Of a stretch of DNA of 54,288 bases, positions 2,795-54,288 are shown one piece after another. Positions within the stretch are counted from its first letter, which is position 1, and the number at the start of each line of letters is the position of its first letter. Made by a program: the position numbers and the translations under genes. This DNA is from a virus (taxonomy: Duplodnaviria; Heunggongvirae; Uroviricota; Caudoviricetes): the IMG/VR virus record IMGVR_UViG_2585427966_000002. The stretch is one strand, 5' to 3'. Under the pieces are notes generated by a model. The model was not told the origin of the DNA and did no database searches. It saw only the letters and a program-made list of their open reading frames with translations.

Positions 2795-5387
2795 TTGCAT
2801 ATTCCTTAGCCCAGCGGGGCAGTGATAATGTCTTAATAGCTGGCCATTCATCGGTATTCAGGCAGTCAGACAGGGTTCGCAGATTGCGGTGATATTCCTG
2901 TTGACCTGCCAGTTTTGCTTCTTCGCCCATCATGAAAATTTCAACCGGATAACGTCCGCATTCAATAGTTGTGCTGGCAACCAGAAAAACGAAAGTTGGC
3001 TGCACTCCAAACAGTGCTTCATAACCGTCACTGTAGAATGCATCCTGAACGTGATAGCGGTAGTCGTAATAAGCGGTTTTGAATCGTTGAATATCCGCCG
3101 TAGTTTTCACGTCCATGATCCAGTGAAATTCAGGGATAATTTTGTCCGGACGGCACCGACACAAAATTCCTGTTTCAGGATCTTCCCAGTAAATTGATGA
3201 TTCAGCGTGTCCGGCGCTTTCAACAAGCCATTGCCCCAGCGGCAAAGCCATAACGCTTTGATACATGAGTTCAATTTTCCGGCCTTCTTCCGCAGTGATA
3301 ACCGTTTTTCCTGTGCTTGCGCATTCCATCAGAAACGCTTTCTCTTCTTCTTTTCCGGCGTTTGTACGGCGGTTAAATTCAGGTGCTACGATAAAGCGGT
3401 TACTGAATTCTTCCGGTTCAAGTACCCGGCAGTGGAAAGCAGTTCCTAAATCGAGCGTTTTTGTCTTTGTGGTGTCCACGGGGGCATTTTTACGCCACAA
3501 ATATAGTGCCGGAGTATCAGCAATGTCATCGAGCTGAGACTTACTGATACCGGGACCCGCGTGGTAATTCTCATTCGAAATTCCGTAATAAATACCTGGC
3601 TCTATGTCTTCTACGATTACGGGATCTGCGACTTCGCCAGTTTCATCACTGCAATCGTGATGCGGATCGCTGCCAGCATTCTCATTGTGCGGATGTTCAG
3701 CGCCTTCCATTTCCTCCGGATCATTTTCCTTAGCTTCAACCTGACTCTCTTCATCGAATGTTTCCTGGTATGTTGCGTCGCCCATCACCGCACCACAGTC
3801 AGGGCAGTTATCCCCGCCAGTCTGGCCGCAGGCATTGCAGGCTATTTCCGGTTCCTGTTGCACTACTGGCTCAGGTTGATTCATATCTGGGCTGGTTTTT
3901 TCCGTTTCTGGCTGGTTCTGGTACACACAATCGCGAGTCTGGATCCCCTTTACCCATTTCGGATCGTTCGGGTCGCTAATTCCGTCAACAAATTCACCAC
4001 GTGATGCAGCAAGCAATTTATCGGCATCGACAGGATTTTTTGATGGAATGTTTTTCCGGGCTTCATGGAGTTCTGCCCGCAGTTCCTGATATTTCGCATC
4101 AACAGAATTTACCTGTGACTGAGCATCCAGCGGCTGCGTGTCCTGATGATGTTCAGTTGCGTCCGGTTCCATTGTTTCAGCCTCTCCCTGTTCAACTGCC
4201 GTTGTTCCAGATGGTTGCGGTTTTTCTTCATCATCCTGTTTTCCTTCTTCTGTTACTCGCTGCGGCATCGGGGCAGAGGAGCGACCGCAGGCAATATCCA
4301 CGATTTCCGGATCAGGGTTGGCATGATCGGTTTCAGTCAGTACTTTGTTCAGATATTCAGTGACGTGCGCGGGGATGACCTCGATCCCAATTGGTGCTTC
4401 TTTTACGGACGCAACCACGATGGCGCGGGAATAATCCAGCCCGCCAGGCATGGTGATGAATTTGTCGCGGAAAACAGAAAAGGGCGGTTTATTTTCAGCG
4501 ATAATTTCCTCAATGCGTTTAGCGTGTGCCGGATGAAGGTTATAGATGTCCAGATCCATTGAACGGGCCAGTACGCCAGTGGCTACGTCGCGCGCCAGTG
4601 ACGTCAGATCGTGTACGAAACCTTCGCCGCGATCGGTGAGGTTTCCGCCGCCAGCATTAGCACCGGAAGCCGTGCGAGTGATGTGTGAAACACGATTACC
4701 CTTCATCCACTCTTTTGTCAGCAGTCCTCGATCGGTGTAGTCAGCGTTCAGGTATGCTTCGAAAAAAGCAGTTATCAGTCCCAGGTTTGAATTACCAGGA
4801 TTAGGGAAAACTTTGTCAGTGTCACGAACCAGTTTGTGGAGTTCGCGAATTTCCAGCGGGTCGAGCAGGCTGGTTTTGTGGGAAACAGCCAGGGCAGTAA
4901 CAGCCGGTAGTTCTTCAGCCCGAGCAATGTGTAATGCCTGGAGTCCGTCGCGTGAAACGTGCGTTACCGGTTTTTCGCTGCCGTGTTGAGCAAGCCAACG
5001 AATGGGCAGTTCCTGGCCAGAAATTGGGAGTAGCATATTCTCCTCAATCTCAGTCATGTCTTCGCCGTTGACGTTGGTATTGCCTTGATAATGAGCGTTG
5101 TCTGGTGCTGCTCCCGGTTTTAGTTCCCATGTCATGGAGTCTTTGCTGAGTTGATAGCGTTCACTCCAGGTAAAATCGATCTCACCTTCAGCGGGCAGGT
5201 CATTAACGACAGGAAAATTCGTGGCAACAGCTTTAAAATAGCTGCTCAGTTTTTTACCTGACTTAACGATCAGGTAGTCCAGAGTGGCACAGGTCGATTC
5301 AAAATCGTTGCTTGCCCACAGGACGACGTCAGGTTCACCGGATGATTTTTTCGCTTTCCGTAACAGGAAGAGTGGTTTTGTGCTCAT
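2787..5387 (-). CDS. recE: RecE exonuclease VIII (866 aa)
   Basis: 866-aa ORF, the length I recall for RecE; acidic low-complexity middle region and C-terminal nuclease region; recE-recT operon arrangement. Confidence 0.9.
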
Positions 5388-5488
5388 TGTTTTTTAACCT
5401 CAACTCAGATTAAAATTCGTTTTGTTCAGTGAATGATCTTGCCGGATACACACTGTTCATAGCCTGCGCCATACGCAGGCTATTTCTT

Positions 5489-5764
5489 TCAGATTTCACC
5501 TTTTAATTTCATTGCAATTAGAGTTGCCAGAAATTCGGCTTTTTTTTCTGCGGGCAGATTCTTTCCGATATGCACCAGGCACATTTTTTTGACACCTTCA
5601 TCAAGTGTTTTTACGTTGCCTGATGGACCATCGATATCAACCACAGTGAATGGGGTTTCTTTATTTTCTGTTTTAATTACGTAGCCAATGCGCTTTCCTT
5701 CCAGATTCACCTCGTGAACAATGTCATCGGTAGTTACAACAGTGGCTTCATAATTGGTAATCAT
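5489..5764 (-). CDS. racC: RacC-like protein (91 aa)
   Basis: Track ORF 5489-5812 trimmed to MITNYEATVVTTDD...; position after recE. Confidence 0.7.
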   Translation of the reverse strand: MITNYEATVVTTDDIVHEVNLEGKRIGYVIKTENKETPFTVVDIDGPSGNVKTLDEGVKKMCLVHIGKNLPAEKKAEFLATLIAMKLKGEI

Positions 5765-5838: not shown

Positions 5839-6009
5839 TTAAAGTTCATGTGCCATCTGGTCTTTTTCGGCACAAGCTTCACTGCAATATTTTCTCGGTT
5901 CGTCTTTTGATAAAATCCCGTGCATGAAGTGAAGCATTCTTTCAATAGCTTTGCTTTCTTCAACGTCTTTTTTGCAAAGGTGGTAAGCACATTTTATTTT
6001 CTTAGTCAT
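5839..6009 (-). CDS. ydaE: YdaE-like small Cys-rich protein (56 aa)
   Basis: Not in ORF track (<60 aa); my translation of the minus strand gives [56 protein letters not shown]; start overlaps kilR stop. Coordinates +/-2. Confidence 0.55.
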   Translation of the reverse strand: MTKKIKCAYHLCKKDVEESKAIERMLHFMHGILSKDEPRKYCSEACAEKDQMAHEL

Positions 6010-6230
6010 CACCATGACTCCGCCTTTACAGGTAAACCATCACAACCGAGGAAGACTTTAATCATGCGGTCAGTAATGCATGTTTTTGTGGTCAGGTTAC
6101 GAATATATAGTTTTCGCTTTTTAATATTGTTTGCCGAGGCAATATATGTCCGGCCTTCATGAAGAACATAATCGCCAGGAGTCACACACTGACGTGGTAT
6201 TTCATCAGTTCCGAAGTGATGTGCAATCAT
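6009..6230 (-). CDS. kilR: KilR cell-division (FtsZ) inhibitor (73 aa)
   Basis: Track ORF 6009-6242 trimmed to [14 protein letters not shown]...; matches remembered KilR. Confidence 0.8.
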
Positions 6231-6671
6231 AATTATCTCCATTTTTACAAATGAATTTTGTTGATGCGGTGCCTGGTGCCTCCAGGTGACTGCAACCAGT
6301 TAACAATTACAGTCGGCTTTCCCACCCAAACCAATAAGGACTAACATGACTTTTAACTGTGCCACGTGCGCTTAGCCGCATTCACCGCATCACAAAATTC
6401 ACTTTAAAAAGGGCGGACATCAGCCGAACTTCAAGAAAAAAACTGATGCCGCCAGGACTACACACAGCAATGTCGTTATTTACAACCGGAGGCGCACTCC
6501 CACCATTTAAATTTAACAGACAAGACCGACTCTTTATGGATATCGGAAATGCGCCTTCGTGTTGTGCCCGGTTTTATTTCACCACCTCCGGGCTTCGGTG
6601 GTCTCGGCTATACCCCTACAGCGAGAGCTTGTGTTAACATTTCAATACCCTTACAGTTGAGAGTTATTGAT

Positions 6672-18742: not shown

Positions 18743-19332
18743 GGCTGGTTTATTGTATGCCAAATGATTATTAAAAAGGTTGTGTTAATAACAAAATCCG
18801 AAATAATATGCCTGCATATTTTTATCTTGCTTATATTCTGCATATTGTGCATAGCAGGCTCATCCCTGCAATCAAAACTGTATGATGAGTATTTTTTGTT
18901 TTCCTTTTTTCCAGTCATCTGATGATGACCTGCTTCTTTTTAATCCGGATCGACATCAGTTTTTTAAGATAATTCCTGCGAGTTATATGCATAAATACCA
19001 CAAACTCCGCATTTTATGTGGTTGGGAGTTGCCGGGCGCGCAGTGAGTTTGCTAAGAAAACTCCTGCATGGTGAATCCCCCTGTGCGGTGGGGTGATACC
19101 ATTAACCTTTTCTGTCGCCGACAGGTATCACGAACATTTTGTTCACCGGGAGGCACCCGGCACCATGCACTTCAATAGATTCTCTCCACATTATGGATAT
19201 TCTTTCAGAATATCCCACGCAGACTTTGTGTAAATGTTAACAAATGTGCGTTTTATTTGATCTGATTCGCTGTTTGAGCGTCCAAAACAACGGTATATAT
19301 AATCCTTTACTATATGACATATGTGAGGAAAA

Positions 19333-41744: not shown

Positions 41745-44700
41745 ATGAGTAAAGGAAGCAGTAAGGGGCATACCCCGCGCGAAGCGAAGGACAACCTGAA
41801 GTCCACGCAGTTGCTGAGTGTGATCGATGCCATCAGCGAAGGGCCGGTTGAAGGTCCGGTGGATGGATTAAAAAGCGTGCTGCTGAACAGTACGCCGGTG
41901 CTGGACACTGAGGGGAATACCAACATCTCCGGTGTCACGGTGGTGTTCCGTGCCGGTGAGCAGGAGCAGACACCGCCGGAGGGGTTTGAATCCTCCGGCT
42001 CCGAGACGGTGCTGGGTACGGAAGTGAAGTACGACACGCCGATTACCCGGACCATCACGTCTGCAAACATCGACCGTCTGCGCTTTACCTTCGGTGTGCA
42101 GGCACTGGTGGAAACCACCTCAAAGGGGGACCGGAATCCGTCGGAAGTCCGCCTGCTGGTTCAGATACAGCGTAACGGTGGCTGGGTGACGGAAAAAGAC
42201 ATCACCATTAAAGGCAAAACCACCTCGCAGTATCTGGCCTCGGTGGTGGTGGATAACCTGCCGCCGCGCCCGTTTAATATCCGGATGCGCAGGATGACGC
42301 CGGACAGCACCACAGACCAGCTGCAGAACAAAACGCTCTGGTCGTCATACACCGAAATCATCGATGTGAAACAGTGCTACCCGAACACGGCACTGGTCGG
42401 CGTACAGGTGGACTCGGAGCAGTTCGGCAGCCAGCAGGTGAGTCGTAATTATCATCTTCGCGGGCGCATTCTGCAGGTGCCGTCGAACTATAACCCGCAG
42501 ACGCGACAATACAGCGGTATCTGGGACGGAACGTTTAAGCCAGCATACAGCAACAACATGGCCTGGTGTCTGTGGGATATGCTGACCCATCCGCGCTACG
42601 GCATGGGGAAACGTCTTGGTGCGGCGGATGTGGACAAATGGGCGCTGTATGTCATCGGCCAGTACTGCGACCAGTCAGTGCCGGACGGCTTTGGCGGCAC
42701 GGAGCCGCGCATCACCTGTAATGCGTACCTGACCACACAGCGCAAGGCGTGGGACGTTCTCAGTGATTTCTGCTCGGCGATGCGCTGTATGCCGGTATGG
42801 AACGGGCAGACGCTGACGTTCGTGCAGGACCGACCGTCGGATAAGGCGTGGACCTATAACCGCAGTAATGTGGTGATGCCGGATGATGGCGCGCCGTTCC
42901 GCTACAGCTTCAGCGCCCTGAAAGACCGCCATAATGCCGTTGAGGTGAACTGGATTGACCCGAACAACGGCTGGGAGACGGCGACAGAGCTTGTTGAAGA
43001 TACGCAGGCCATTGCCCGTTACGGTCGTAATGTTACGAAGATGGATGCCTTTGGCTGTACCAGCCGGGGGCAGGCACACCGCGCCGGGCTGTGGCTGATT
43101 AAAACGGAGCTGCTGGAGACGCAGACCGTGGATTTCAGCGTCGGCGCAGAAGGGCTTCGCCATGTACCGGGCGATGTTATTGAAATCTGCGATGATGACT
43201 ATGCCGGTATCAGCACCGGTGGTCGTGTGCTGGCGGTGAACAGCCAGACCCGGACGCTGACGCTCGACCGTGAAATCACGCTGCCATCCTCCGGTACCAC
43301 GCTGATAAGCCTGGTTGACGGAAGTGGCAATCCGGTCAGCGTGGAGGTTCAGTCCGTCAACGACGGCGTGAAGGTAAAAGTGAGCCGTGTTCCTGAGGGT
43401 GTTGCTGAATACAGCGTATGGGGGCTGAAGCTGCCGACGCTGCGCCAGCGCCTGTTCCGCTGCGTGAGTATCCGTGAGAACGACGACGGCACGTATGCCA
43501 TCACCGCCGTGCAGCATGTGCCGGAAAAAGAGGCCATCGTGGATAACGGGGCGCACTTTGACGGCGAACAGAGTGGCACGGTGAATGGTGTCACGCCGCC
43601 AGCGGTGCAGCACCTGACCGCAGAAGTCACTGCAGACAGCGGGGAATATCAGGTGCTGGCGCGATGGGACACACCGAAGGTGGTGAAGGGCGTGAGCTTC
43701 CTGCTCCGTCTGACCGTAACAGCGGACGACGGCAGTGAGCGGCTGGTCAGCACGGCCCGGACGACGGAAACCACATACCGCTTCACGCAACTGGCGCTGG
43801 GGAACTACAGGCTGACAGTCCGGGCGGTAAATGCGTGGGGGCAGCAGGGCGATGCGGCGTCGGTATCGTTCCGGATTGCCGCACCGGCAGCACCGTCGAG
43901 GATTGAGCTGACGCCGGGCTATTTTCAGATAACCGCCACGCCGCATCTTGCCATTTATGACCCGACGGTACAGTTTGAGTTCTGGTTCTCGGAAAAGCGG
44001 ATTACCGATATCAGGCAGGTTGAAACCACAGCCCGCTATCTTGGCACGGCGCTGTACTGGATAGCCGCCAGTATCAATATCAAACCGGGCCATGATTATT
44101 ATTTTTACATCCGCAGTGTGAACACCGTTGGCAAATCGGCATTTGTGGAGGCTGTTGGCCAGCCGAGTGATGATGCATCCGGCTATCTGGATTTTTTCAA
44201 AGGAGAGATAGGGAAAAGCCATCTGGCTCAGGAGCTGTGGACGCAGATTGATAACGGTCAGCTTGCGCCTGACCTGGCTGAAATCAGGACGTCCATTACG
44301 GATGTCAGCAATGAAATCACGCAGACCGTCAATAAGAAACTGGAAGACCAGAGTGCGGCAATTCAGCAGATACAGAAGGTTCAGGTTGATACAAATAATA
44401 ACCTGAACAGCATGTGGGCTGTGAAGCTGCAGCAGATGCAGGACGGACGCCTTTATATCGCGGGTATTGGTGCCGGTATTGAGAATACCCCTGACGGTAT
44501 GCAGAGTCAGGTGCTGCTGGCGGCGGACAGGATTGCGATGATTAATCCTGCGAATGGCAACACAAAGCCGATGTTTGTTGGTCAGGGCGATCAGATATTT
44601 ATGAATGAAGTGTTCCTGAAATATCTGACGGCTCCCACCATTACCAGCGGCGGTAATCCTCCGGCATTTTCCCTGACACCGGACGGGCGGCTGACGGCAA

Positions 44701-45224
44701 AAAATGCCGATATCAGCGGTAACGTGAATGCGAACTCCGGGACGCTCAACAACGTCACGATTAACGAGAACTGCCGGGTTCTGGGAAAACTGTCCGCGAA
44801 CCAGATTGAAGGCGATCTCGTTAAAACAGTGGGCAAAGCTTTCCCCCGTGACTCCCGTGCACCGGAACGGTGGCCATCAGGGACCATTACCGTCAGGGTT
44901 TATGACGATCAGCCGTTTGACCGGCAAATTGTTATTCCAGCGGTGGCTTTCAGCGGTGCCAGACATGAACGGGAGAATAGCGATACTTATTCGTCATGCC
45001 GCCTGATAGTGAAGAAAAACGGGGCTGAAATTTATAACCGAACGGCTCTGGATAATACTCTGATTTACACGGGTGTTATTGATATGCCTGCAGGCAGTGG
45101 CGTAATGACACTGGAGTTTTCGGTATCAGCATGGTGGGTAAATGGCTGGTATCCCACAGCAAGTATCAGCGATTTGCTGGTTGTGGTGATGAAGAAAGCC
45201 ACCGCAGGCATCAGTATCAGCTGA
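41745..45224 (+). CDS. Host specificity / central tail fibre protein J (1159 aa)
   Basis: Size, position and lambda J-like sequence; fibronectin-like internal region. Confidence 0.9.
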
Positions 45225-45291
45225 ATTTTATAACCCCAATACGGGCGTCAGAAATGACGCCTTTTTTATTGCAGAAAAGCGAGAGGTAATT

Positions 45292-45891
45292 ATGCGTAAA
45301 TTATGTGCTGTTATTCTGTCCGCAGTAGTCTGGCTGGTTGCCGCTGGTACGCCAGCGAGCGCAGCAGAGCATCAGTCCACACTAAGCGCCGGGTATCTTC
45401 AGGCCCATACTGATATGCCAGGCAGTGATGACCTGAAGGGCATTAACGTGAAATACCGTTATGAATTTACGGACACGCTGGGGCTGGTGACGTCATTCAG
45501 TTATGCCAATGCCAAAGATGAGCAAAAAACGCATTACAGCGATACCCGCTGGCATGAAGATTCAGTGCGTAACCGCTGGTTCAGCATGATGGCGGGGCCA
45601 TCTGTACGCGTGAATGAATGGTTCAGTGCTTATGCGATGGCAGGTGTGGCTTACAGCCGTGTTTCGACGTTCTCCGGGGATTATCTCCGCGTAACTGACA
45701 ACAAGGGGAAAACGCACGATGTGCTGACCGGAAGTGATGACGATCGCCACAGCAACACGTCTCTGGCGTGGGGAGCTGGCGTGCAGTTTAACCCGACCGA
45801 ATCCGTGGCCATTGATATTGCTTATGAAGGCTCCGGCAGTGGCGACTGGCGCACTGACGGTTTCATCGTGGGTGTCGGTTATAAGTTCTGA
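45292..45891 (+). CDS. lomR: Lom-family outer membrane beta-barrel protein (199 aa), uninterrupted
   Basis: Signal peptide; Ail/Lom-like with C-terminal GYKF; no IS interruption. Confidence 0.85.
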   Translation: MRKLCAVILSAVVWLVAAGTPASAAEHQSTLSAGYLQAHTDMPGSDDLKGINVKYRYEFTDTLGLVTSFSYANAKDEQKTHYSDTRWHEDSVRNRWFSMMAGPSVRVNEWFSAYAMAGVAYSRVSTFSGDYLRVTDNKGKTHDVLTGSDDDRHSNTSLAWGAGVQFNPTESVAIDIAYEGSGSGDWRTDGFIVGVGYKF

Positions 45892-45917
45892 TTAGCCAGG
45901 TAACACAGTGTTATGAC

Positions 45918-45945
45918 AGCCCGCCGGTTCAGGCGGGCTTTTTTG
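45918..45945 (+). terminator. Rho-independent terminator (agcccgcc-ggttca-ggcgggct-tttttt)
   Basis: 8-bp GC stem plus T-tract read directly after lom. Confidence 0.6.
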
Positions 45946-45949
45946 TGGA

Positions 45950-48331
45950 GTGGATATGGCAGCAGTAAAAATCTCAGGTGTGCTGAAAGATGGTGCGGGA
46001 AAACCAATACAGAACTGCACTATTCAACTGAAGGCAAAGCGTAACAGCACCACGGTACTGGTGAACACGGTGGCCTCTGAAAATCCGGATGAAGCCGGGC
46101 GTTACAGCATGGATGTTGAGTATGGTCAGTACAGCGTCACCCTGCTGGTTGAAGGTTTTCCGCCTTCACATGCCGGGACCATTACCGTCTATGAAGGTTC
46201 CAGACCAGGTACGCTGAATGATTTTCTCGGTGCCATGACGGAAGATGATGTCATGCCGGAGGCATTGCGTCGTTTTGAGGAAATGGTGGAAGAAGCGGCA
46301 CGCAACGCTGAAGCCGCCTCTCAGAGCGCAGCGGCGGCAAAGAAATCCGAAACTGCAACGGCATCATCGAAGAACGCGGCGAAAACCTCAGAAACGAATG
46401 CAGCTAACAGCGCACAGGCGGCAGCGGCCTCGCAGACTGCATCGGCAAACTCCGCAACAGCAGCTAAAAAATCAGAAACCAACGCGAAAAATAGCGAGAC
46501 AGCCGCAAAGACGAGCGAAACCAACGCAAAGTCCAGCCAGACGGCAGCGAAGACCAGCGAAACGAATGCCAAAGCCAGTGAAACTGCGGCAAAAAACAGC
46601 CAGGTTGCAGCAGCCCAAAGCGAGAGCGCGGCAGCCGGTTCTGCGACTTCAGCAGCTGGATCAGCAACTGCTACGGCTAACAGCCAGAAAGCTGCGAAGA
46701 CGAGTGAAACTAACGCAAAGTCCAGCCAGACGGCAGCGAAGACCAGCGAAACGAATGCCAAAGCCAGTGAAACTGCGGCGAAAAGCAGTCAGGATGCAGC
46801 GGCTCAAAGCGAGAGTGCCGCAGCCAGTTCTGCAAGCGCGGCGGCTGCTTCTGCCACTGCATCAGCTAACAGTCAAAAAGCAGCAAAAACCAGTGAAACC
46901 AACGCAAAGGTGAGCGAAACAGCGGCTGCGAACTCAGCGAAAGCATCGGCAGCAAGCCAGACGGCAGCTAAAGCAAGCGAAGATGCAGCCAGAGAGTACG
47001 CAAGCCAGGCTGCGGAGCCGTATAAATATGTCTTACAGCCGCTGCCTGATGTGTGGATACCATTTAACGATTCGCTGGATATGATTACGGGCTTTTCGCC
47101 GTCATATAAAAAAATTGTTATTGGTGACGATGAAATAACGATGCCTGGCGACAAGATTGTTAAGTTTAAACGTGCATCGAAAGCAACCTATATTAACAAA
47201 TCTGGTGTGCTGACAGAGGCTGCCATTGACGAGCCACGATTTGAACGTGATGGCCTGCTTATTGAGGGGCAAAGAACAAACTACATGCTCAATTCGGAAA
47301 GCCCTGCCAGTTGGGGGCGATCTTCAAATATGGATGTGCCCGAAACAGGGACGGATAATTTTGGTTTTACCTATGGAAAGTTTGTCTGCAACGATTCTCT
47401 GATTGGGCAAACCTCAGCCATTAATATGGCATCAATTGCTGCAACAAAGTCAGTTGATGTCTCAGGCGATAATAAACACGTGACAACCTCATGTCGTTTT
47501 AAAACAGAACTGCAGGTAAGGTTGCGTATCCGGTTTGATAAATATGACGGTAGCGCAACAACTTTTCTTGGTGATGCGTATATTGATACACAAACGCTTG
47601 AAATTAATATGACAGGCGGTGCTGCCTCAAGGATTACAGCGAGAGTCAGAAAGGACGAAGCTACCGGATGGATTTTTGCAGAGGCAACAATTCAGGCAAT
47701 TGATGGGGAGCTAAAAATAGGCTCTCAGATACAGTATTCTCCTAAGCAGAGCGGGGCAACCGTATCTGGTGACTATATTTATCTGGCCACCCCACAAGTA
47801 GAAGATGGGCCTTGTGTATCATCTTTTATTATATCAGGAGCGACGGCGGCGACCCGCGCAAGCGATATAGTTACAGTTCCAATTAAGAATAATCTTTATA
47901 ATCTTCCTTTTACGGTTCTTTGTGAGGTACATAAGAACTGGTATAAAACGCCAAATGCAGCGCCACGTGTTTTTGATACCGGCGGTCATCAAACCGGAGC
48001 GGCTATTATTCTTGGCTTCGGTCGTTCAACAGATTACGACGGATTTCCTTATTGCGATATTGGAGGAGCTAACAGACGGGTAAACGAAAACGCATCGCTT
48101 GAAAAAATGGTTATGGGGATGCGTGTAAAGTCAGAGCAGTCTACGTGCTCAGTAAGTAACGGGCATATATCCAGCGAAACAAAAACCACATGGTCCTGTA
48201 TTCAGAACACCGCAATTATCCGTATTGGAGGCCAGACTACAGCCGGGTTACGTCATTTATTTGGTCATGTCAGGAATTTCAGAATATGGCACAAGGCATT
48301 GACTGATGCTCAGGTGGGGGAGTCAATCTAA
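45950..48331 (+). CDS. stfR: Side tail fibre protein (Stf-like N-terminus, Ala-rich repeat shaft), 793 aa
   Basis: N-terminus (VKISGVLKDGAGKPIQNCTIQLKAKRNSTTV...) matches remembered lambda Stf / StfR; internal AAKTSETNAKxSxTAAK repeats. Confidence 0.8.
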   Translation: MDMAAVKISGVLKDGAGKPIQNCTIQLKAKRNSTTVLVNTVASENPDEAGRYSMDVEYGQYSVTLLVEGFPPSHAGTITVYEGSRPGTLNDFLGAMTEDDVMPEALRRFEEMVEEAARNAEAASQSAAAAKKSETATASSKNAAKTSETNAANSAQAAAASQTASANSATAAKKSETNAKNSETAAKTSETNAKSSQTAAKTSETNAKASETAAKNSQVAAAQSESAAAGSATSAAGSATATANSQKAAKTSETNAKSSQTAAKTSETNAKASETAAKSSQDAAAQSESAAASSASAAAASATASANSQKAAKTSETNAKVSETAAANSAKASAASQTAAKASEDAAREYASQAAEPYKYVLQPLPDVWIPFNDSLDMITGFSPSYKKIVIGDDEITMPGDKIVKFKRASKATYINKSGVLTEAAIDEPRFERDGLLIEGQRTNYMLNSESPASWGRSSNMDVPETGTDNFGFTYGKFVCNDSLIGQTSAINMASIAATKSVDVSGDNKHVTTSCRFKTELQVRLRIRFDKYDGSATTFLGDAYIDTQTLEINMTGGAASRITARVRKDEATGWIFAEATIQAIDGELKIGSQIQYSPKQSGATVSGDYIYLATPQVEDGPCVSSFIISGATAATRASDIVTVPIKNNLYNLPFTVLCEVHKNWYKTPNAAPRVFDTGGHQTGAAIILGFGRSTDYDGFPYCDIGGANRRVNENASLEKMVMGMRVKSEQSTCSVSNGHISSETKTTWSCIQNTAIIRIGGQTTAGLRHLFGHVRNFRIWHKALTDAQVGESI
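46320..46960 (+). repeat. Imperfect tandem repeats within stf encoding the Ala/Ser/Thr-rich shaft
   Basis: Units such as AAKTSETNAKSSQTAAKTSETNAKASETAAK recur at least twice (about 46500-46610 and 46690-46800) with shorter variants. Confidence 0.6.
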
Positions 48332-48612
48332 TGAAAGATTTAACACTCAAATTTGCCGACAGGGCCGACTTTTCGGCCTTTATGGATAGCACTGGCTATT
48401 ATGATGACGAGTCGATGCAGGATGATATTCTTATTGACGTGATAGGTAACGTGTACAAAGAAACCGGAGAACTGACTGAAGATGGCGAACCGGTATGTGT
48501 TAAGGAAGACGGATATTTTGTAAACGTGCGCATCATTAATGATTCGCAAATATCGTCATTATTCGATGAATACGTGGTTGCTGTTGAGCATCAACTTCGT
48601 GGCTGGATGTGA
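48331..48612 (+). CDS. Hypothetical acidic protein (93 aa) between the tail fibre genes
   Basis: Track ORF; ATG overlaps the stf stop. Confidence 0.45.
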   Translation: MKDLTLKFADRADFSAFMDSTGYYDDESMQDDILIDVIGNVYKETGELTEDGEPVCVKEDGYFVNVRIINDSQISSLFDEYVVAVEHQLRGWM

Positions 48613-48621
48613 GGAAGAAAA

Positions 48622-49662
48622 ATGGCTACATCGACAGTAATTCCTGATGACATCAAAACGCTAAAATCCGACGTTAGCAAATTAAAAAACGATCAAGGAA
48701 GCTACGCAACAAAATTATATGTAGACAGCAAAGATGAAATCGTTGGTGACTGGTCTGCTTCATGGTATCAGCAGGTATTGCCAACTAGCGGAGCTATATT
48801 TGGGAGAAAACTCCGCTCAACTCACAGGACGGCAGGTGTTGAGGATGCGTATTGCGAACTATACCTCAAAAAATGGATAGACAGTCCAGGTAACGCAATG
48901 GCGCGCCTTAACCTGAACGATAACGGGACAAACATTTGCTGGGACTTTACCAACCTTTATGGCGGTACGATGATTTTTCCCGGTGACAGCGGATACCTCA
49001 AAATGGGTAACTGCCTTATGTCATACAGCAAGCGTGGAAGTAGCGCGCTTATTAAATTTGATTACACCGACACATTACAGATCAAATATGCCAATCATGG
49101 GTCAACCATGACATTAAACACACAGGGAACCGCTTATGCTGGTGTTACTGCTCAATTGTGGGGCAACACCAGCCGTCCTGTTGTTTATGAAGTCGGTGTT
49201 GATGGTGGCGCTTATATGTTCTATGCGCAGAAAAATACCGATAACACCTATATGTTAAGCGTTAATGGTGCATGTCATGCCACCGCATTTAACCAGCATT
49301 CCGACCGGGATCTGAAAGACAACATTCAGGTGATCGATAATGCAACCGACCGCATCCGTAAAATGAACGGCTATACATACACGCTTAAAGAAAACGGTAT
49401 GCCCTATGCTGGTGTCATTGCACAGGAAGCTCTGGAAGCAATCCCAGAAGTTGTAGGTTCCGCAATGAAATATCAGGACGGTGCAAGCGGATCGGAAGGT
49501 GAAGAAGGTGAACGTTATTACACAGTAGATTATTCTGGTGTTACTGGCTTGCTTGTTCAGGTAGCCAGAGAGTCAGACGACAGAATAACAGCACTGGAAG
49601 AAGAAAACGCAGAATTAAGACAAAGATTATCTGCAATTGAGGCGGCGCTTGCGTCTAAATAA
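48622..49662 (+). CDS. Tail fibre protein with C-terminal intramolecular chaperone (Peptidase S74-like) domain, 346 aa
   Basis: SDRDLKDNIQVI motif followed by a ...ALEEENAELRQRL coiled-coil tail, which I recognise as the autoproteolytic chaperone signature. Confidence 0.7.
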   Translation: MATSTVIPDDIKTLKSDVSKLKNDQGSYATKLYVDSKDEIVGDWSASWYQQVLPTSGAIFGRKLRSTHRTAGVEDAYCELYLKKWIDSPGNAMARLNLNDNGTNICWDFTNLYGGTMIFPGDSGYLKMGNCLMSYSKRGSSALIKFDYTDTLQIKYANHGSTMTLNTQGTAYAGVTAQLWGNTSRPVVYEVGVDGGAYMFYAQKNTDNTYMLSVNGACHATAFNQHSDRDLKDNIQVIDNATDRIRKMNGYTYTLKENGMPYAGVIAQEALEAIPEVVGSAMKYQDGASGSEGEEGERYYTVDYSGVTGLLVQVARESDDRITALEEENAELRQRLSAIEAALASK

Positions 49663-49668
49663 TATTAA

Positions 49669-49688
49669 GGGGCCGAGCGCCCCGTTTT
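49669..49688 (+). terminator. Hairpin (ggggc-cgagc-gcccc-gtttt)
   Basis: Read directly after the tail fibre gene. Confidence 0.45.
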
Positions 49689-49689
49689 A

Positions 49690-49998
49690 TTGGGTAGGAT
49701 GAAAATGGATATAACACCTTTCCTTCATGCGCTTTGTGCTGTGGCTGCGCAGCTACTGATTGGTCTTTTTACCGGGAACTGGGCTTACGGGGCGATAGCC
49801 GGTTGTACGTTCTTCATTGCGCGTGAACACACCCAGGCAGAATATCGCTGGATTGAAATGTTCGGGCATGGCAAGCGAATGAATATGCCGTGGTGGGGCG
49901 GTTTTGATCCGCGCGCGTGGGATGTGGCAAGCCTGATGGATTTTGCTGTGCCGGTGGTGGCGTGTCTGCTGGTCTGGCTGTTGGTTAATCGTGGGTGA
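49690..49998 (+). CDS. Hypothetical membrane protein (102 aa, two predicted TM segments)
   Basis: Track ORF; hydrophobic stretches; sits where tfa would be expected. Confidence 0.4.
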   Translation: MGRMKMDITPFLHALCAVAAQLLIGLFTGNWAYGAIAGCTFFIAREHTQAEYRWIEMFGHGKRMNMPWWGGFDPRAWDVASLMDFAVPVVACLLVWLLVNRG

Positions 49999-50008
49999 AA
50001 AAAGGTGA

Positions 50009-50128
50009 GCTGTATATGCAACGGAGGAAGAAACCTCGTTGCGGGAAGCCTGGAAGAAGTATCGGGTGTTGCTGAACCGTGTTGATACGTCAACTGCACA
50101 GGATATTGAATGGCCAGCACTGCCGTAG
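50009..50128 (+). pseudogene. Tail fibre assembly (tfa) 3' remnant, C-terminal ~39 codons only
   Basis: Translation ...[36 protein letters not shown] matches the Tfa C-terminus as I recall it; an in-frame stop lies immediately upstream and there is no start. Confidence 0.6.
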
Positions 50129-50225
50129 GGTAAAACATATAAATTCTATAATTAGATGTATCTTTCCATTTACGGCAAGGAAGGGGGCTTGGAAGACGTA
50201 AGGCATCTCACACCGAGATTATTTT

Positions 50226-50816
50226 TTATATGTCAGGTGTCTGAAGTTTTGCTTTGGCTCTTAAAATGGTTTGCCGCGAGGTTTTGAATTCCCGGGCAAT
50301 GGCACTTATACTTACACCTGACTTAATCCGTTCGAATACCACCTGTTTCTGTTCTTCATTTAACACAGGTGGTCGACCAAAACGTTTCCCTGCGCCCCGG
50401 GCTCTTACTATCCCGGAATGAGTGCGTTCAAGTAAAAGGTCTCGTCCAAATTCAGCGACTGCTGAAATTACTTGCATCATCATTTTTCCTGTTGGACTGG
50501 TCAGGTCAATGCCCCCCAATGCTAAGCAATGCACTCTGATACCTGTTTCGGTCAGTTGTTCCACTGTTTTCCTGATATCCATTGCATTACAACCAAGGCG
50601 ATCCAGTTTTGTCACAATCAATTGATCACCACATTTCAGGCGAGCAAGCAACCGGTTAAAACCAGGACGCTCACTGGTTGCTGCTGAGCCGCTAATGTGT
50701 TCTTCGATTATTTGCTGAGGTTTGATTTTAAAACCTGCACTTTCGATTTCCCGGCGTTGATTTTCGGTGGTCTGATCCAGCGTTGATATCCGACAGTAAG
50801 CAAAAATTCGAGACAT
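50226..50816 (-). CDS. pinR: Serine recombinase / DNA invertase (Pin/Gin/Hin family), 196 aa
   Basis: N-terminal catalytic Ser region ([15 protein letters not shown]) and C-terminal HTH. Confidence 0.9.
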
Positions 50817-51132
50817 AGTGAGACTCTATACGAAATTGGTGTTCATATCATAATGCATCTCAGAAAATAATTTTGATTATTTTTGTGCATGTTTGTATGT
50901 ACACGTTCGAAAATAAACGAATGCGTATGCAACCCCGTAATTTTGGTGAGACCCAAAATCGATTTTGTGAAAAATAGCTTTAACTCGGTTTGTTTTTCGA
51001 GTTCCGGGCGGACTCAAGGAAGAAGAATAGTGTTGCGTGTTATTTTAACCAGATTTCAAGTTGTTTGGTCGTGGAAAAGTGGAGCAAAATGTTGTTAAAG
51101 TGGAAAAATGATAAAAAAGTAAGTTTATTATA

Positions 51133-51366
51133 TTACATTTTACCATTTAAATTTTGGTTGTCTTTAAGAACTGATATCGCTGTTTGTAATAATTCTTTGT
51201 TATCCAGCCATGATTTTTTCTTTATGTTTCCTTCAATGTAATCAAGCAATGTTCTGGTATTGATAGGTCTTCCCTGTTTTGCTACTTCCACTACAGCATC
51301 CCCTAGGATAATTCTTACTTCAGGAAGCTGCGCAGGGAACCACTTTAGGGTGTCTTTTGATTTCAT
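51133..51366 (-). CDS. ynaE: YnaE/YdfK-like protein (77 aa)
   Basis: Track ORF 51133-51399 trimmed to MKSKDTLKWFPAQL; matches remembered YnaE. Confidence 0.65.
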   Translation of the reverse strand: MKSKDTLKWFPAQLPEVRIILGDAVVEVAKQGRPINTRTLLDYIEGNIKKKSWLDNKELLQTAISVLKDNQNLNGKM

Positions 51367-51945
51367 GAAGATATTCCTTAAAATATTATTGATTTTCATT
51401 GCGATATTGTATGTCTGATTCAGGATATGTTGACTTATACATCGGTTTTGTCTGGGTTATTGGATATGCCAATCCCTAATTTTATTAGGGCATGACTAAA
51501 AATGCTGAATATGATAAGGAGAGATGTGATTATCAGTATGCTGTTCATATAGCCTCGAATTAGTAATGTGTTATATATGATATAGTTGACAATTTTTATC
51601 CTGGGTGTTCTTAAAGTTCGTAGATAAACATTGTCGTTTCAGGTATACAGGAATGCTAACAGGTGGCAGCAAAAATCAGGCGGTTTATGGCGCAAGCTGA
51701 AGCGGCAACTGCAAACTATCTTATGCAGAGACTCTACACGGATTGGGTTTAAAAGTATACATAGATAACAGTTTTTATCTGAAGAAGAAAAATATCAAGG
51801 TGATATAGCCTATATGCCTATGATGCGGAGGAATGAATGTGATGGGAGTGATGTATCTGAATAGTTGAAAAACCGCAGTCACGTCGTATGCAAGAACGTG
51901 CTGCGGTTGGTTTGACTTTGATTGAGACGTTTTGGAATTTTTTTC

Positions 51946-52000
51946 GGTGGCAAAAATGGGGCAAAACGCTGCAAAAGGGGCAAAAAAGGGGCAAAAAAAG
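51946..52000. repeat. Five short direct repeats with GCAAAA(A) core at 9-11-bp spacing
   Basis: ggtggcaaaaa tggggcaaaa cgctgcaaaa ggggcaaaaaa ggggcaaaaaaa read directly; about 100 bp on the phage side of the ttcA junction. Confidence 0.55.
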
Positions 52001-52096
52001 AGTGGATTATCGTAGCTTATTGTTGTCGCTGATGATATCTAACACATTGAAAAATAAGTAAAATACTTATGAGTCAGAGAGTTGTGATTTTTGCCC

Positions 52097-52150
52097 TTAC
52101 TTGTTCAGGTTGTATTGTTCTTTCTTTGTAATTTGTTGATTTTCTTGCAT
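52097..52150 (-). pseudogene. ttcC: ttcA 5' fragment (17 codons MQENQQITKKEQYNLNK then stop), attachment-site junction
   Basis: My minus-strand translation matches the N-terminus of TtcA as I recall it and then stops; marks the attR crossover region. Confidence 0.55.
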
Positions 52151-52201: not shown

Positions 52202-52420
52202 CTACGATAACCGCGCATTCAACATGGCTACCTGTTCGTCGTTCATGTCATCAATCCACATACCGTAAATTTCATACACCATCTGCGCAGTTTCATGCCC
52301 CATCTGGCTGGCTATAAATGCCGGGTTCGCTCCTGCCGTCAACAGCCAGCAGGCAAAAGTATGTCGCGTATGGTACGGATTACGGCGGCGAATACCAGCA
52401 CGTTTTACTGCTGCATTCCA
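52202..52420. repeat. Right copy of the ~219-bp direct repeat (integrase 3' end)
   Basis: Near-identical to 1-219; homology continues with more divergence to about 52470. Confidence 0.8.
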
Positions 52421-52470
52421 TCTCGCTCCCAAATAGTCGTAGTGAAATCTGATGGGAAAGCCTTGCTTAG
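52202..52470 (-). pseudogene. Integrase 3' fragment (last ~80 codons) from a second, decayed Rac-like element
   Basis: Track ORF 52202-52510 translates to ...GARWNAAVKRAGIRRRNPYHTRHTFACWLL...NARLS, almost identical to the IntR C-terminus; upstream part diverges and lacks the N-terminal 300+ codons. Confidence 0.7.
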
Positions 52471-52501
52471 CATGCTGGTGTTGCGCTACCCGTACAGGAT
52501 G

Positions 52502-52690
52502 CGGTAACACAGGAAGAAATTAGAACAGAAACTGTGGCGGACATTGTGCATTCGTTGCCAGGCGGAGAAATAGAACGCTACAACAAGTGCAGAATATAAT
52601 TTTTCGCAAGTGCCAGAATAGCGATATTATGCAGTGTTTTTTAGTTTTCTATCAGGGGATATTTTGTGAAACTTTTCGGTGAATAAAATA
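52502..52690 (+). pseudogene. Fused fragments homologous to ydaW (about 11083-11137) and to the 3' end of the 145-aa ORF (about 11640-11765)
   Basis: By-eye alignment: acaggaagaAattaGaacagaaactgtggcggacattgtgcaTtcgttgcca versus the ydaW sequence; second part about 70% identical to the 11640-11765 region. Confidence 0.5.
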
Positions 52691-53218
52691 ATTCTCTGTA
52701 ATAAATGATGGGTATGGTTGGTGGTTATATTTGCGCATGGAAATATTACATTGGATATGAATGTATTTCAAATGAAAGAACCATGACACCCGAATGGAGT
52801 TAGGGATTCATTACGTATCTAATCTAAAGAATAAGAAAAATACTTAATTCATTGTGGGTGGTGATGATATCTTGATATGTAAAAATGGTTCTCTTAATAA
52901 GATGTAACTAGCTTATTACTTATCCATAGCACAAGAAATGGTCCTGTATCTGCGTTGCCATGAAATAAGATAGGCCTAAATGTAATAAAGAGTTGCATGA
53001 CAAAATTACTAAAGTTCACAATAAAAAAGAATTAAGTTTTTTGTTCAAGTATTTTTTTAGTGTATTGTTTTGAAATGTTCTACGCTGCTCTAACCTTCAG
53101 TCTGAAGAGGGCTTGAATCGTGATGTCAGTTCGATTGACATAATGTTATTAATAATGTTTACGTTTGAATGTGAAATATGCTTAACTATGCCTTGATTGT
53201 TAATCACAGGGACTGACT

Positions 53219-53398
53219 ATGAGAAAAATACTGATGTATTTATGTATTAGCATATGGATTGTTATATCATGCGTGCCTATCATATTAACTAGCGAGTATT
53301 TAACAGAGGCGAGTATAATGGCATTGATGTTTGGTCATGCCAATGCACTATGTATTGGGGTTTTTATTTCTATTATTTATATAGAATGCTGGAGGTAA
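53219..53398 (+). CDS. Hypothetical small membrane protein (59 aa)
   Basis: My reading (MRKILMYLCISIWIVISCVPIIL...); AT-rich region; weak RBS. Confidence 0.25.
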   Translation: MRKILMYLCISIWIVISCVPIILTSEYLTEASIMALMFGHANALCIGVFISIIYIECWR

Positions 53399-53786
53399 AT
53401 AGTGTGAACAGCATTAGTTTGATGATTTTATACTGAACTAAAGGGGGAAAGAGGTAACGAAAAAAGACCTCCACCAGGTACGAATCTGAGGCGGGCAGAT
53501 GGAGGTCGATATCTACACGATTAAATTGATAAGTAAAAGTCCCATCAGGGATTGATTTGTTCGAGTCTAATTTAAAGTAATTTCAACGATTTGGCAGAAT
53601 TTCTTAGAGTTAATGATTTTCAAGTTTTCGATTACCAGGAAAAAGGCTGGGTGCTGATAAAATAGTCATCTGCATTCCTTAAATTGTGTAAGGGTGAAAG
53701 GATAAAGTTCAATTTAAAGGCGGTGCAATATTAGCACCATCTTATATATGTAATGATTGATTTGCCTCTTTATTCTACTGTTGAGA

Positions 53787-54288
53787 TTATTGTTTCCGAA
53801 AATTGATTATTATAAGCGCGAAAAGAAATGCTACAGCAAATAAGAGGACGATTGTCGGCGCTGGGGCTCTATCGAGAAAATATAATAACCATACACCTGA
53901 TATTGTTATTGATATCGTTACGGCGATAAGTAATGCCTTATGAAAGCGATGCGTGATGAGGACAGCAATAGACCCTGGAGCTATTAATAGTATATAGACA
54001 GAATAATTTCGACTGCTTTTAATGTGGCAAAAATGGTAGGCGATACCATGCAGAGTAAACCGTAATGTAATAATGATATCTGTAATCCGCTGACTTGTGC
54101 CTGTTGATAGTCAAGACAAAAATTCCTGAAAAAACGATACCTATAATGGTATCTTTCTTTATGATGCTATTATCTTTCAGATAGCCAGTTGCAATTGCAC
54201 AAGACAGTCCTACAATAAATGCACCAATTCCCAGCGGCATACCTATAATCCAGGCTAGAACTATGCCAGGAAACATTGCGTGGTTCAT
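53787..54288 (-). pseudogene. Membrane protein gene interrupted by an in-frame TAA (at 54019-54021); start at or beyond the window end
   Basis: Track ORF 54019-54288 (89 aa, hydrophobic) continues in the same frame after one stop codon for about 77 more hydrophobic codons to 53787. Confidence 0.4.

Follow-up and report, generated by a model that had tools for sequence, protein, structure and literature searches.

A probable Rac-type lambdoid prophage with an exchanged receptor-binding cassette

The window (the whole 54,288-nucleotide stretch of DNA analysed, IMG/VR record IMGVR_UViG_2585427966_000002) probably holds a lambdoid prophage of the Rac type in which the receptor-binding cassette was exchanged, the tfa scar stems from an older, inherited join, and the recombinase has no substrate in cis. 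The sequence features singled out in a preliminary description of this region hold up, yet they amount to a common recombination scar, widely distributed and already annotated, of the kind left when lambda-like phages shuffle their tail-fibre cassettes. It is classical phage biology that mosaic exchange of such cassettes leaves 3' gene fragments behind; NCBI's PGAP pipeline has flagged the remnant, and it is published that pinR and pinQ are orphans and act in trans on e14.

Following the suggestion in the preliminary description that the breakpoints be placed by alignment, we compared the window with Rac of Escherichia coli K-12 and found the edges at ~46300 and 50017. Identity is ~98-100% as far as the stf start (45949), falls to 78-92% across the stf N-terminal anchor and is gone beyond about 46300. 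Similarity is back at 50017, and the right arm (50017-52143) is 98.8% identical up to the attR/ttcC end. Since identity with Rac is lost after about 46300 and regained from 50017, the swapped cassette is wider than 48622-50016; as delimited by the alignment, the exchanged unit is 45950-50017, comprising stf, a gene for a 93-aa protein, a short S74 fibre gene and a membrane-protein gene. The preliminary description had stf-C and tfa replaced by a different receptor-binding module. Such a module does stand in the place of the Rac-type stf-C/tfa, but it spans the whole of 45950-50017 and not the distal fibre alone. An Rfam search gave no match in the 48622-50816 region.

K-12 Rac (stfR-tfaR-pinR) and Qin (stfQ-tfaQ-pinQ) share with the window the attachment-site end, a convergent pin that lacks cis sites, and a right arm running from the tfa 3' end through pin and ynaE/ydfK to ynaM/ynfT (98.8% identity). 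Unlike the window, they encode a complete Tfa (191 aa) and a StfR of 1120 aa whose shaft and tip are unrelated, and they have none of the 93-aa, S74-fibre and membrane genes.

We detected the full module in 83 genomes and in the phages Tritos (LF82 prophage 3, OV696610), HannyBb, PhiR63_1 and 2G7b, at 98.5-99.9% identity. All four phages have the same order: J, stf, the 93-aa gene, the 346-aa S74 fibre gene, the 97-aa membrane gene, the tfa remnant, pin and a ydfK-like gene. Tritos is 99.4% identical to the window over 45939-51910; it differs in its integration at ydfJ, the Qin site of LF82, and in having no lom between J and stf. The same arrangement is viable, as Tritos forms plaques and has been imaged as a siphovirus (PMC9928086).

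It is improbable that the window is a decaying prophage with a non-functional fibre module, in which the tfa remnant is one of several inactivating lesions. A pseudogene fragment is indeed present, and the recombinase carries a private E123G substitution at a conserved position (absent from LF82, PinR, PinQ and Tritos, whose Pin has E123). However, none of the four cassette ORFs is broken, each being 99-100% identical to its counterpart in plaque-forming Tritos, and the lambdoid genome in the window is full-length, spanning int to attR.

The tfa remnant and its junction

Downstream of the membrane gene only a 3' remnant of tfa is found (50018-50128, plus strand), a non-coding scar of 36 codons plus a stop (50126-50128) without a start. 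Residues 156-191 of TfaR match 50018-50125 with 34 of 36 identical, and residues 1-155 have no match anywhere in the window (tblastn, E > 1). An in-frame stop lies upstream at 50006, with no start codon between it and the remnant, which falls short of a complete Tfa, an ORF of some 190 aa that has its own start. In LF82 the same stretch is labelled by PGAP as 'tail fiber assembly protein, incomplete, missing N-terminus'. The stop-bounded, startless remnant of the preliminary description (~39 codons there, 36 by the match to TfaR) is confirmed, and it is dead.

Because TfaR residues 1-155 are absent from the whole window and the remnant has an upstream stop and no start, it is not part of a frameshifted intact tfa, a candidate that we therefore ruled out. 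A fusion of the membrane ORF to the remnant by read-through or frameshifting was likewise rejected, as the A-AAA-AAG run lies 3' of the stop and the remnant is in frame +1, not -1.

The junction at which the membrane gene meets the tfa remnant is identical, nucleotide for nucleotide, in phage 21 (OL657228), and is present in 1745 of the 5426 complete E. coli genomes and in 36 phage records. Phage 21 also resembles the window in its Stf family (71% aa identity), a small accessory gene (92 aa) and the membrane gene (96% aa identity), but it has no S74 short fibre, no terminator hairpin and no pin, and its tfa remnant is cut at about 57 nt by a sitABCD insertion. A second scar of the same kind was identified in the P22-like phage 611R6, where a 166-nt 3' remnant of an S74 fibre precedes the membrane gene. 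Marking a cassette boundary in a third of complete E. coli genomes, the tfa remnant helps annotation and host-range engineering of lambdoid phages.

Inspection by eye gave no convincing microhomology at the join of the membrane gene and tfa, nor did a sequence parental to the original join turn up. From a single observation, the lack of visible homology at the junction, we infer that the original join was non-homologous. Judging by the sequences compared, the junction is old and inherited and not private to the window. The illegitimate recombination put forward in the preliminary description agrees with the join itself, which shows no visible homology, but not with a fresh event here, since the junction is common to phage 21 and to 1745 of 5426 genomes. 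The later spread of the junction fits homologous exchange through conserved flanks rather than a fresh illegitimate event; in lambda, Red-beta mediates the exchange of stf/tfa DNA with Rac and Qin (PMC3945230).

For the direction and mechanism of the cassette exchange we propose the following. An older non-homologous join would have linked the tail of the membrane-gene unit with the last third of tfa, once, and would have been inherited since. The tfa remnant and the conserved stf 5' end would now serve as homology arms, and through both arms cassettes could be swapped between lambdoid phages and prophages by relaxed homologous recombination.

A recombinase without a substrate in cis

Convergent with the fibre genes, 50226-50816 (minus strand) encodes a PinR/PinQ-type small serine recombinase with a resolvase catalytic domain (PF00239, E 3.9e-35) and a C-terminal HTH_7 domain (PF02796, E 3.8e-11). 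It is identical to K-12 PinR at 195 of 196 positions. Classical invertases are mutually about 60-70% identical, and with 37% identity between PinR and PinE the recombinase lacks close kinship with them. Among the matches listed, the closest non-PinR phage homologues are 44-46% identical, apart from one record in the 60-80% band.

The invertible systems of e14 (stfP/tfaP, tfaE/stfE, pinE) and Gin/Cin/Hin resemble the window in that a small serine recombinase adjoins fibre and tfa genes. In contrast to the window, e14 has two inverted sites with an AAACC-NN-GGTTT core and oppositely oriented alternative fibre ends, and its pin points away from the segment, whereas the pin of the window converges with the fibre genes.

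The preliminary description had noted a convergent pinR with no obvious pair of crossover sites and suggested a search for such pairs, and both observations hold. The invertase core AAACCNNGGTTT had no match at up to one mismatch in the whole 54-kb window; at two mismatches there were 28 matches versus 29 expected by chance, none of them within 45000-51000. The published e14 site TTGGTTTGGGAGAAGG had no match in the window at up to three mismatches, and a search for crossover half-sites with mismatches gave nothing above chance. As a positive control, the same core search on e14 recovered both its sites; in K-12 Rac it found none. There were no inverted alternative fibre or tfa ends (tblastn with TfaR and StfR gave single plus-strand matches only) and no inversion isomers, the best 25 of the 83 full-length matches each being one collinear piece.

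Scanning 44-54 kb for inverted repeats, we found one perfect 16-nt pair at 45305-45320 and 49579-49594, located in lom and in the S74 fibre gene. A perfect repeat of this length is rarer than chance, being reached in only 1 of 200 shuffles, and PinR diverges from the classical invertases, so its preferred site could differ. The recombinase might accordingly keep a cis substrate with sites unlike gix/pix, such as this repeat. We consider this highly unlikely, as such an inversion would disrupt lom as well as the fibre gene, and the junction it predicts occurs in none of the 5426 complete genomes, so the 16-nt pair was rejected as a crossover site. Moreover, PinQ has a single published substrate, the classical e14 site, and the survey in the same study saw inversions in e14 only (PMC12529663).

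The swap did not orphan the recombinase, because K-12 Rac and Qin, with an intact stf-tfa and the same pin, are also without cis sites. The claim that recombination left the invertase without a substrate therefore fails; PinR is moreover distant from PinE, and inversion of the e14 P segment by PinQ and PinR acting in trans has been reported (PMC12529663). It is very unlikely that a single illegitimate recombination in this lineage both swapped stf-C/tfa and stripped the invertase of its invertible substrate. Such an event would account for a startless tfa piece, a left edge without visible homology and a window without a site pair. Against it, the junction is shared by phage 21 and a third of complete E. 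coli genomes, Rac and Qin lack inverted fibre copies as well as sites, and PinR is not of the Gin family by sequence. In the reading that we prefer, the recombinase is part of the right arm that is conserved (tfa 3' end, pin, ydfK/ynaE, ynfT/ynaM), lacks a cis substrate in every known carrier and, if active, would act in trans on the e14 P segment.

A probable composite side-fibre module

The first gene of the cassette encodes the side tail fibre Stf, about 791 aa when read from its ATG (45956-48331, plus strand; the ORF list starts at a GTG at 45950). It consists of a lambda-type N-terminal anchor (PF08400, residues 5-133, E 8.7e-67), an Ala/Ser-rich repeat shaft and a C-terminal binding region of its own. 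The anchor and the position of the gene downstream of J and lom are those of a lambdoid side fibre, and the N-terminus matches the Stf N-terminal chain of PDB 9e7m (E 7.5e-49). Stf matches PHROG 1419 over its full length, and residues 437-637 correspond to the GTA head-spike-fibre domain NF048003 (50.5 bits versus a cut-off of 36). K-12 StfR matches it through StfR residues 2-110 only, and Stf is 71% identical to Stf of phage 21 and 73% to a fibre of the virulent phage ESCO3.

The start of the 93-aa gene (48331-48612, plus strand), a partner of this Stf fibre type, overlaps the stf stop. Its product matches PHROG 1361 (E 7e-46) and has no match in Pfam, NCBIfam or PADLOC. We found it in 179 phage records (tblastn), directly 3' of a fibre gene in the 40 listed. 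Carriers include virulent Nonagvirus, T5-like and rV5-like phages, and the homologues in T5-like phages likewise follow fibre genes. An AlphaFold2 model built on a shallow alignment was discarded because its pLDDT of 42 made it unusable.

The third gene (48622-49662, plus strand) encodes a short fibre of 346 aa with a full-length match to PHROG 4563 ('tail fiber protein'). The preliminary description had this fibre end in an intramolecular-chaperone domain with the motif SDRDLKDNI, which is confirmed by a match to Peptidase_S74 (PF13884) at residues 227-278 (E 4.8e-14; 52.8 bits versus the Pfam gathering cut-off of 22), and the fibre is of the self-chaperoning kind. The chaperone domain occupies the extreme C-terminus (residues 227-346 of 346, 49300-49659); residues 1-226 (48622-49299) are the predicted mature part, and the region upstream of the domain matches fibre PHROGs and a T4 gp34-like repeat. 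Closer inspection of the translation gave the motif HS(227)DRDLK(232)DNI at 49297-49326, in which S227-D-R-D-L-K232 aligns with SSDRRIKKDI of the chaperone region of PDB 6f45. A Ser at the cleavage site and a Lys five residues downstream form the Ser-Lys dyad of endosialidases. With Ser227 and Lys232 in these places, the short fibre is probably cut at Ser227 by autocleavage; it would fold through its own chaperone domain, without requiring Tfa, and may dock on Stf. Its N-terminal 115 aa are found in 14 phage records only, from lambdoids and Nonagvirus.

A two-part lateral fibre is described in the Tequintavirus IrisVonRoten, with a proximal fibre that has a lectin-like C-terminus and a distal, chaperone-ended fibre (BASEL preprint 10.1101/2024.09.12.612763). 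The genes of the window follow the same logic, a long anchored fibre and then a separate fibre with an intramolecular-chaperone end. Unlike that of IrisVonRoten, its distal fibre is short (226 aa predicted mature) and not T-shaped with two binding domains. In the virulent phage ESCO3 the genes for the fibre, the 93-aa protein and the S74 fibre are all present (94% nucleotide identity), and the membrane gene is missing. The 94% identity over a 2.6-kb stretch between these temperate phages and a virulent Nonagvirus shows a fairly recent temperate-virulent exchange of receptor-binding genes.

Between the fibre and membrane genes lies a G+C-rich hairpin followed by a T run (49669-49683), terminator-like on both strands, which also precedes the membrane gene in phage 611R6. 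The 102-aa membrane-protein ORF that the preliminary description placed where tfa should be is real, but the conserved start gives 97 aa: the ORF list begins at a TTG (49690-49998), and the ATG at 49705 is the start in 30 of 30 aligned homologues and in PGAP. The resulting three-helix membrane protein (49705-49998, plus strand) carries the invariant motif AREHTQAEYRWI..FG.GKR.NMPWWGGFD and corresponds to PHROG 1443, with no match in Pfam, NCBIfam or PADLOC; the three helices are those of an AlphaFold2 model (mean pLDDT 93.9). No standout promoter was seen in the sequence for this gene, and in LF82 it is not among the Tritos, Perceval and Gally genes whose expression exceeds background by 5-fold or more (PMC9928086).

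In lambdoid siphoviruses, P22-like podoviruses, and HP1/P2-like and phiHAP-1 myoviruses, members of the 97-aa family are encoded directly 3' of a receptor-binding gene; translational coupling with the fibre gene is frequent, and the fibre that precedes them is repeatedly an S74-ending one. The membrane gene is a regular partner of this fibre type, and its high conservation beside unrelated receptor-binding proteins argues for a receptor-independent role. For the two small proteins we infer functions as follows. The 93-aa protein would be the accessory in a composite side-fibre module (45950-50017) that also comprises Stf, an optional short S74 fibre and the 97-aa membrane protein. The latter can tentatively be seen as an uncharacterised fibre-linked function, possibly a general block of DNA entry (superinfection exclusion) or an envelope/LPS-related modifier. 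As a conserved membrane protein that travels with receptor-binding genes, it offers an inexpensive, testable lead to a possible new function in phage-host interaction.

A fibre cassette exchanged within a Rac-type prophage

The window carries a full-length lambdoid prophage of Rac type: over 50017-52143 it matches K-12 Rac's right end at 98.8% identity as far as attR/ttcC, and RalA, the sRNA from the toxin-antitoxin pair of Rac, is present at 1557-1735 (Rfam, 225 bits). A second Rfam sRNA match within the prophage is STnc100 (19036-19222, 87 bits). Past the Rac-type attR, 52202-54288 contains a tyrosine integrase fragment (C-terminal, 102 aa, minus strand) together with genes for a DUF1627 protein and a metal ABC permease. 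Of 5426 E. coli genomes, 1044 cover this neighbourhood over at least 80%, and it has the appearance of a leftover from another element.

The right-end gene order begins with J (41745-45224) and continues with lom (45292-45891), stf (45956-48331), a 93-aa gene (48331-48612), the gene for a 346-aa fibre (48622-49662), a hairpin (49669-49683), a membrane-protein gene (49705-49998), a tfa fragment (50018-50128) and pin (50226-50816, minus strand), with a ydfK/ynaE-like gene beyond. Every element of the preliminary description of this region was confirmed, while its interpretation is partly supported. Breakpoints were placed by comparison with K-12 Rac. Identity is ~98-100% across lom to the start of stf and 78-92% in the Stf N-terminal anchor, is gone beyond ~46300, and resumes at 50017, within tfa. 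The exchanged unit is therefore the entire block from stf through the 93-aa and S74 fibre genes to the membrane gene; a cassette was exchanged as proposed, but it is this block and not the distal fibre alone. We regard the feature as mosaicism of an ordinary kind: it is widespread and viable, and annotation already covers it.

Residues 227-278 of the 346-aa fibre match the chaperone domain Peptidase_S74 far over Pfam's cut-off, and the protein can be aligned to the chaperone part of a long-tail-fibre tip of solved structure. Ser227 and Lys232 sit in the motif from which a self-chaperoning distal fibre had been proposed, and that proposal stands. We take the S74 fibre to be an optional second fibre whose docking is inferred; in logic, Stf plus S74 fibre resembles the proximal and distal lateral fibres described in one T5-like phage. 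The 93-aa gene was found in 179 phage records from many genera, behind fibre genes among the matches listed, and its product is read as an accessory of its fibre type. The Ala/Ser-rich shaft of Stf (46418-46981) contains internal repeats ~190 nt apart with ~82% identity, which are likely sites of length variation.

Distribution of the cassette

The cassette is a known, working module. The whole arrangement, including the tfa remnant and pin, shares 99.4% identity over 6 kb with phage Tritos (LF82 prophage 3), which forms plaques on MG1655 and was imaged as a siphovirus (PMC9928086). Tritos, HannyBb, PhiR63_1 and 2G7b carry the fibre cassette (46300-50020) at 98.5-99.9% identity, and full-length copies of the module occur in 83 of 5426 complete E. 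coli genomes.

Its parts also occur apart from one another. Phage 21 combines an Stf of this family with the small accessory gene and the membrane gene but lacks the S74 fibre, whereas the virulent Nonagvirus vB_EcoS_ESCO3 has the fibre, 93-aa gene and S74 fibre at 94% nucleotide identity and lacks the membrane gene. The match to ESCO3 (window 47036-49598 against 3001-5563) is 2.56 kb long and runs from the fibre C-terminus through the 93-aa gene into the S74 fibre, which indicates a fairly recent exchange of this stretch between temperate and virulent phages.

The tfa remnant and its junction

The tfa fragment corresponds to TfaR residues 156-191 (34 of 36 identical), has an in-frame stop upstream and lacks a start codon, as had been described. 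An intact but frameshifted tfa is excluded because nothing in the whole window corresponds to TfaR residues 1-155. PGAP already labels the remnant 'tail fiber assembly protein, incomplete, missing N-terminus'. Phage 21 has exactly this join of the tfa 3' end to the end of the membrane-gene unit, and a 156-nt probe spanning it (counted when covered over at least 80%) matched 36 phage records as well as 1745 of the 5426 complete E. coli genomes. The join is therefore old and inherited, which contradicts the fresh illegitimate recombination suggested for this lineage.

Experiments have shown that Red-beta-dependent recombination between diverged sequences lets lambda swap its stf/tfa DNA with that of Rac and Qin (PMC3945230). 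For transfer of the cassette, the conserved stf 5' end on one side and the tfa 3' end with pin on the other would serve as homology arms, and a non-homologous event would be required for the original join only; the parent sequences of that join were sought and not found. A second scar of the same kind is present in the P22-like phage vB_EcoP-611R6: at 3793-4243, behind tailspike and O-acetylase genes, the S74 fibre gene survives as its final 166 nt along with the hairpin and the membrane gene, at 96% identity to window 49497-49947. The fibre fragment there is annotated as a 37-aa 'tail fiber protein'.

The Pin recombinase

The convergent pin gene encodes a protein identical to K-12 PinR at 195 of 196 residues, and the reported lack of a crossover-site pair was borne out. 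The invertase core has no match in the 54 kb at up to one mismatch; its two-mismatch matches are about as many as chance predicts, and all lie away from the fibre genes. A search of the window for the published e14 repeat, allowing up to three mismatches, likewise gave nothing. The identical core search recovers both sites in e14. Contrary to the preliminary description, the swap did not orphan the recombinase, since K-12 Rac and Qin have an intact stf-tfa followed by the same convergent pin and equally lack crossover sites and inverted fibre copies.

PinR is 37% identical to PinE and 44-46% identical to its nearest non-PinR phage homologues among the matches listed; judged by sequence, it lies outside the classical Gin/Hin/Cin/Pin group. 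A 2025 study reported that PinQ inverts the e14 P segment in trans, treated PinR as equivalent, and in its database survey found inversions in e14 only (PMC12529663). Codon 123 of the window's pin (50449-50451), within the conserved AEF-E-RD stretch, encodes Gly, a change private to the window, with Glu in PinR, PinQ, PinE, LF82 and Tritos; this E123G change may impair the copy. A perfect 16-nt inverted repeat links the lom 5' end (45305-45320) and the S74 fibre 3' end (49579-49594), a length beyond chance expectation, reached in only 1 of 200 dinucleotide shuffles; the junction expected from inversion there occurs in none of the 5426 E. coli genomes.

The 97-aa membrane protein

The membrane protein is the sole part of the region without an existing explanation. 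The proposed 102-aa ORF is confirmed in a shorter form of 97 aa: the conserved start, used by PGAP and all 30 aligned homologues, is the ATG at 49705. AlphaFold2 predicts three helices (pLDDT 93.9). The family comprises 575 clusters with an invariant polar motif; it has no match in Pfam, NCBIfam or PADLOC, and a fold search returned generic helical matches only.

In many phage types the gene lies directly 3' of a receptor-binding gene, as in lambdoid siphoviruses and P22-like podoviruses. It overlaps the Tfa gene in phiHAP-1, its start abuts or overlaps the fibre stop in HP1/P2-like prophages of Aeromonas and Leclercia (the Leclercia fibre has an S74 end), and in a Comamonas prophage it lies near a J-like gene with one 72-aa gene in between. 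In LF82 it does not belong to the prophage genes whose transcription exceeds background by a factor of 5 or more (PMC9928086 data), which, taken with the translational coupling, tends to favour late expression and makes a simple role in lysogenic conversion less likely. A chromosomal homologue outside any prophage in Aeromonas rivipollensis (6001-6309) adjoins a RIO1/Kdo-kinase-like gene and two genes for lipid A acyltransferases, which may hint at an envelope-related role. Our best guess, and no more than a guess, is that the protein's function does not depend on the receptor and has to do with infection or entry.
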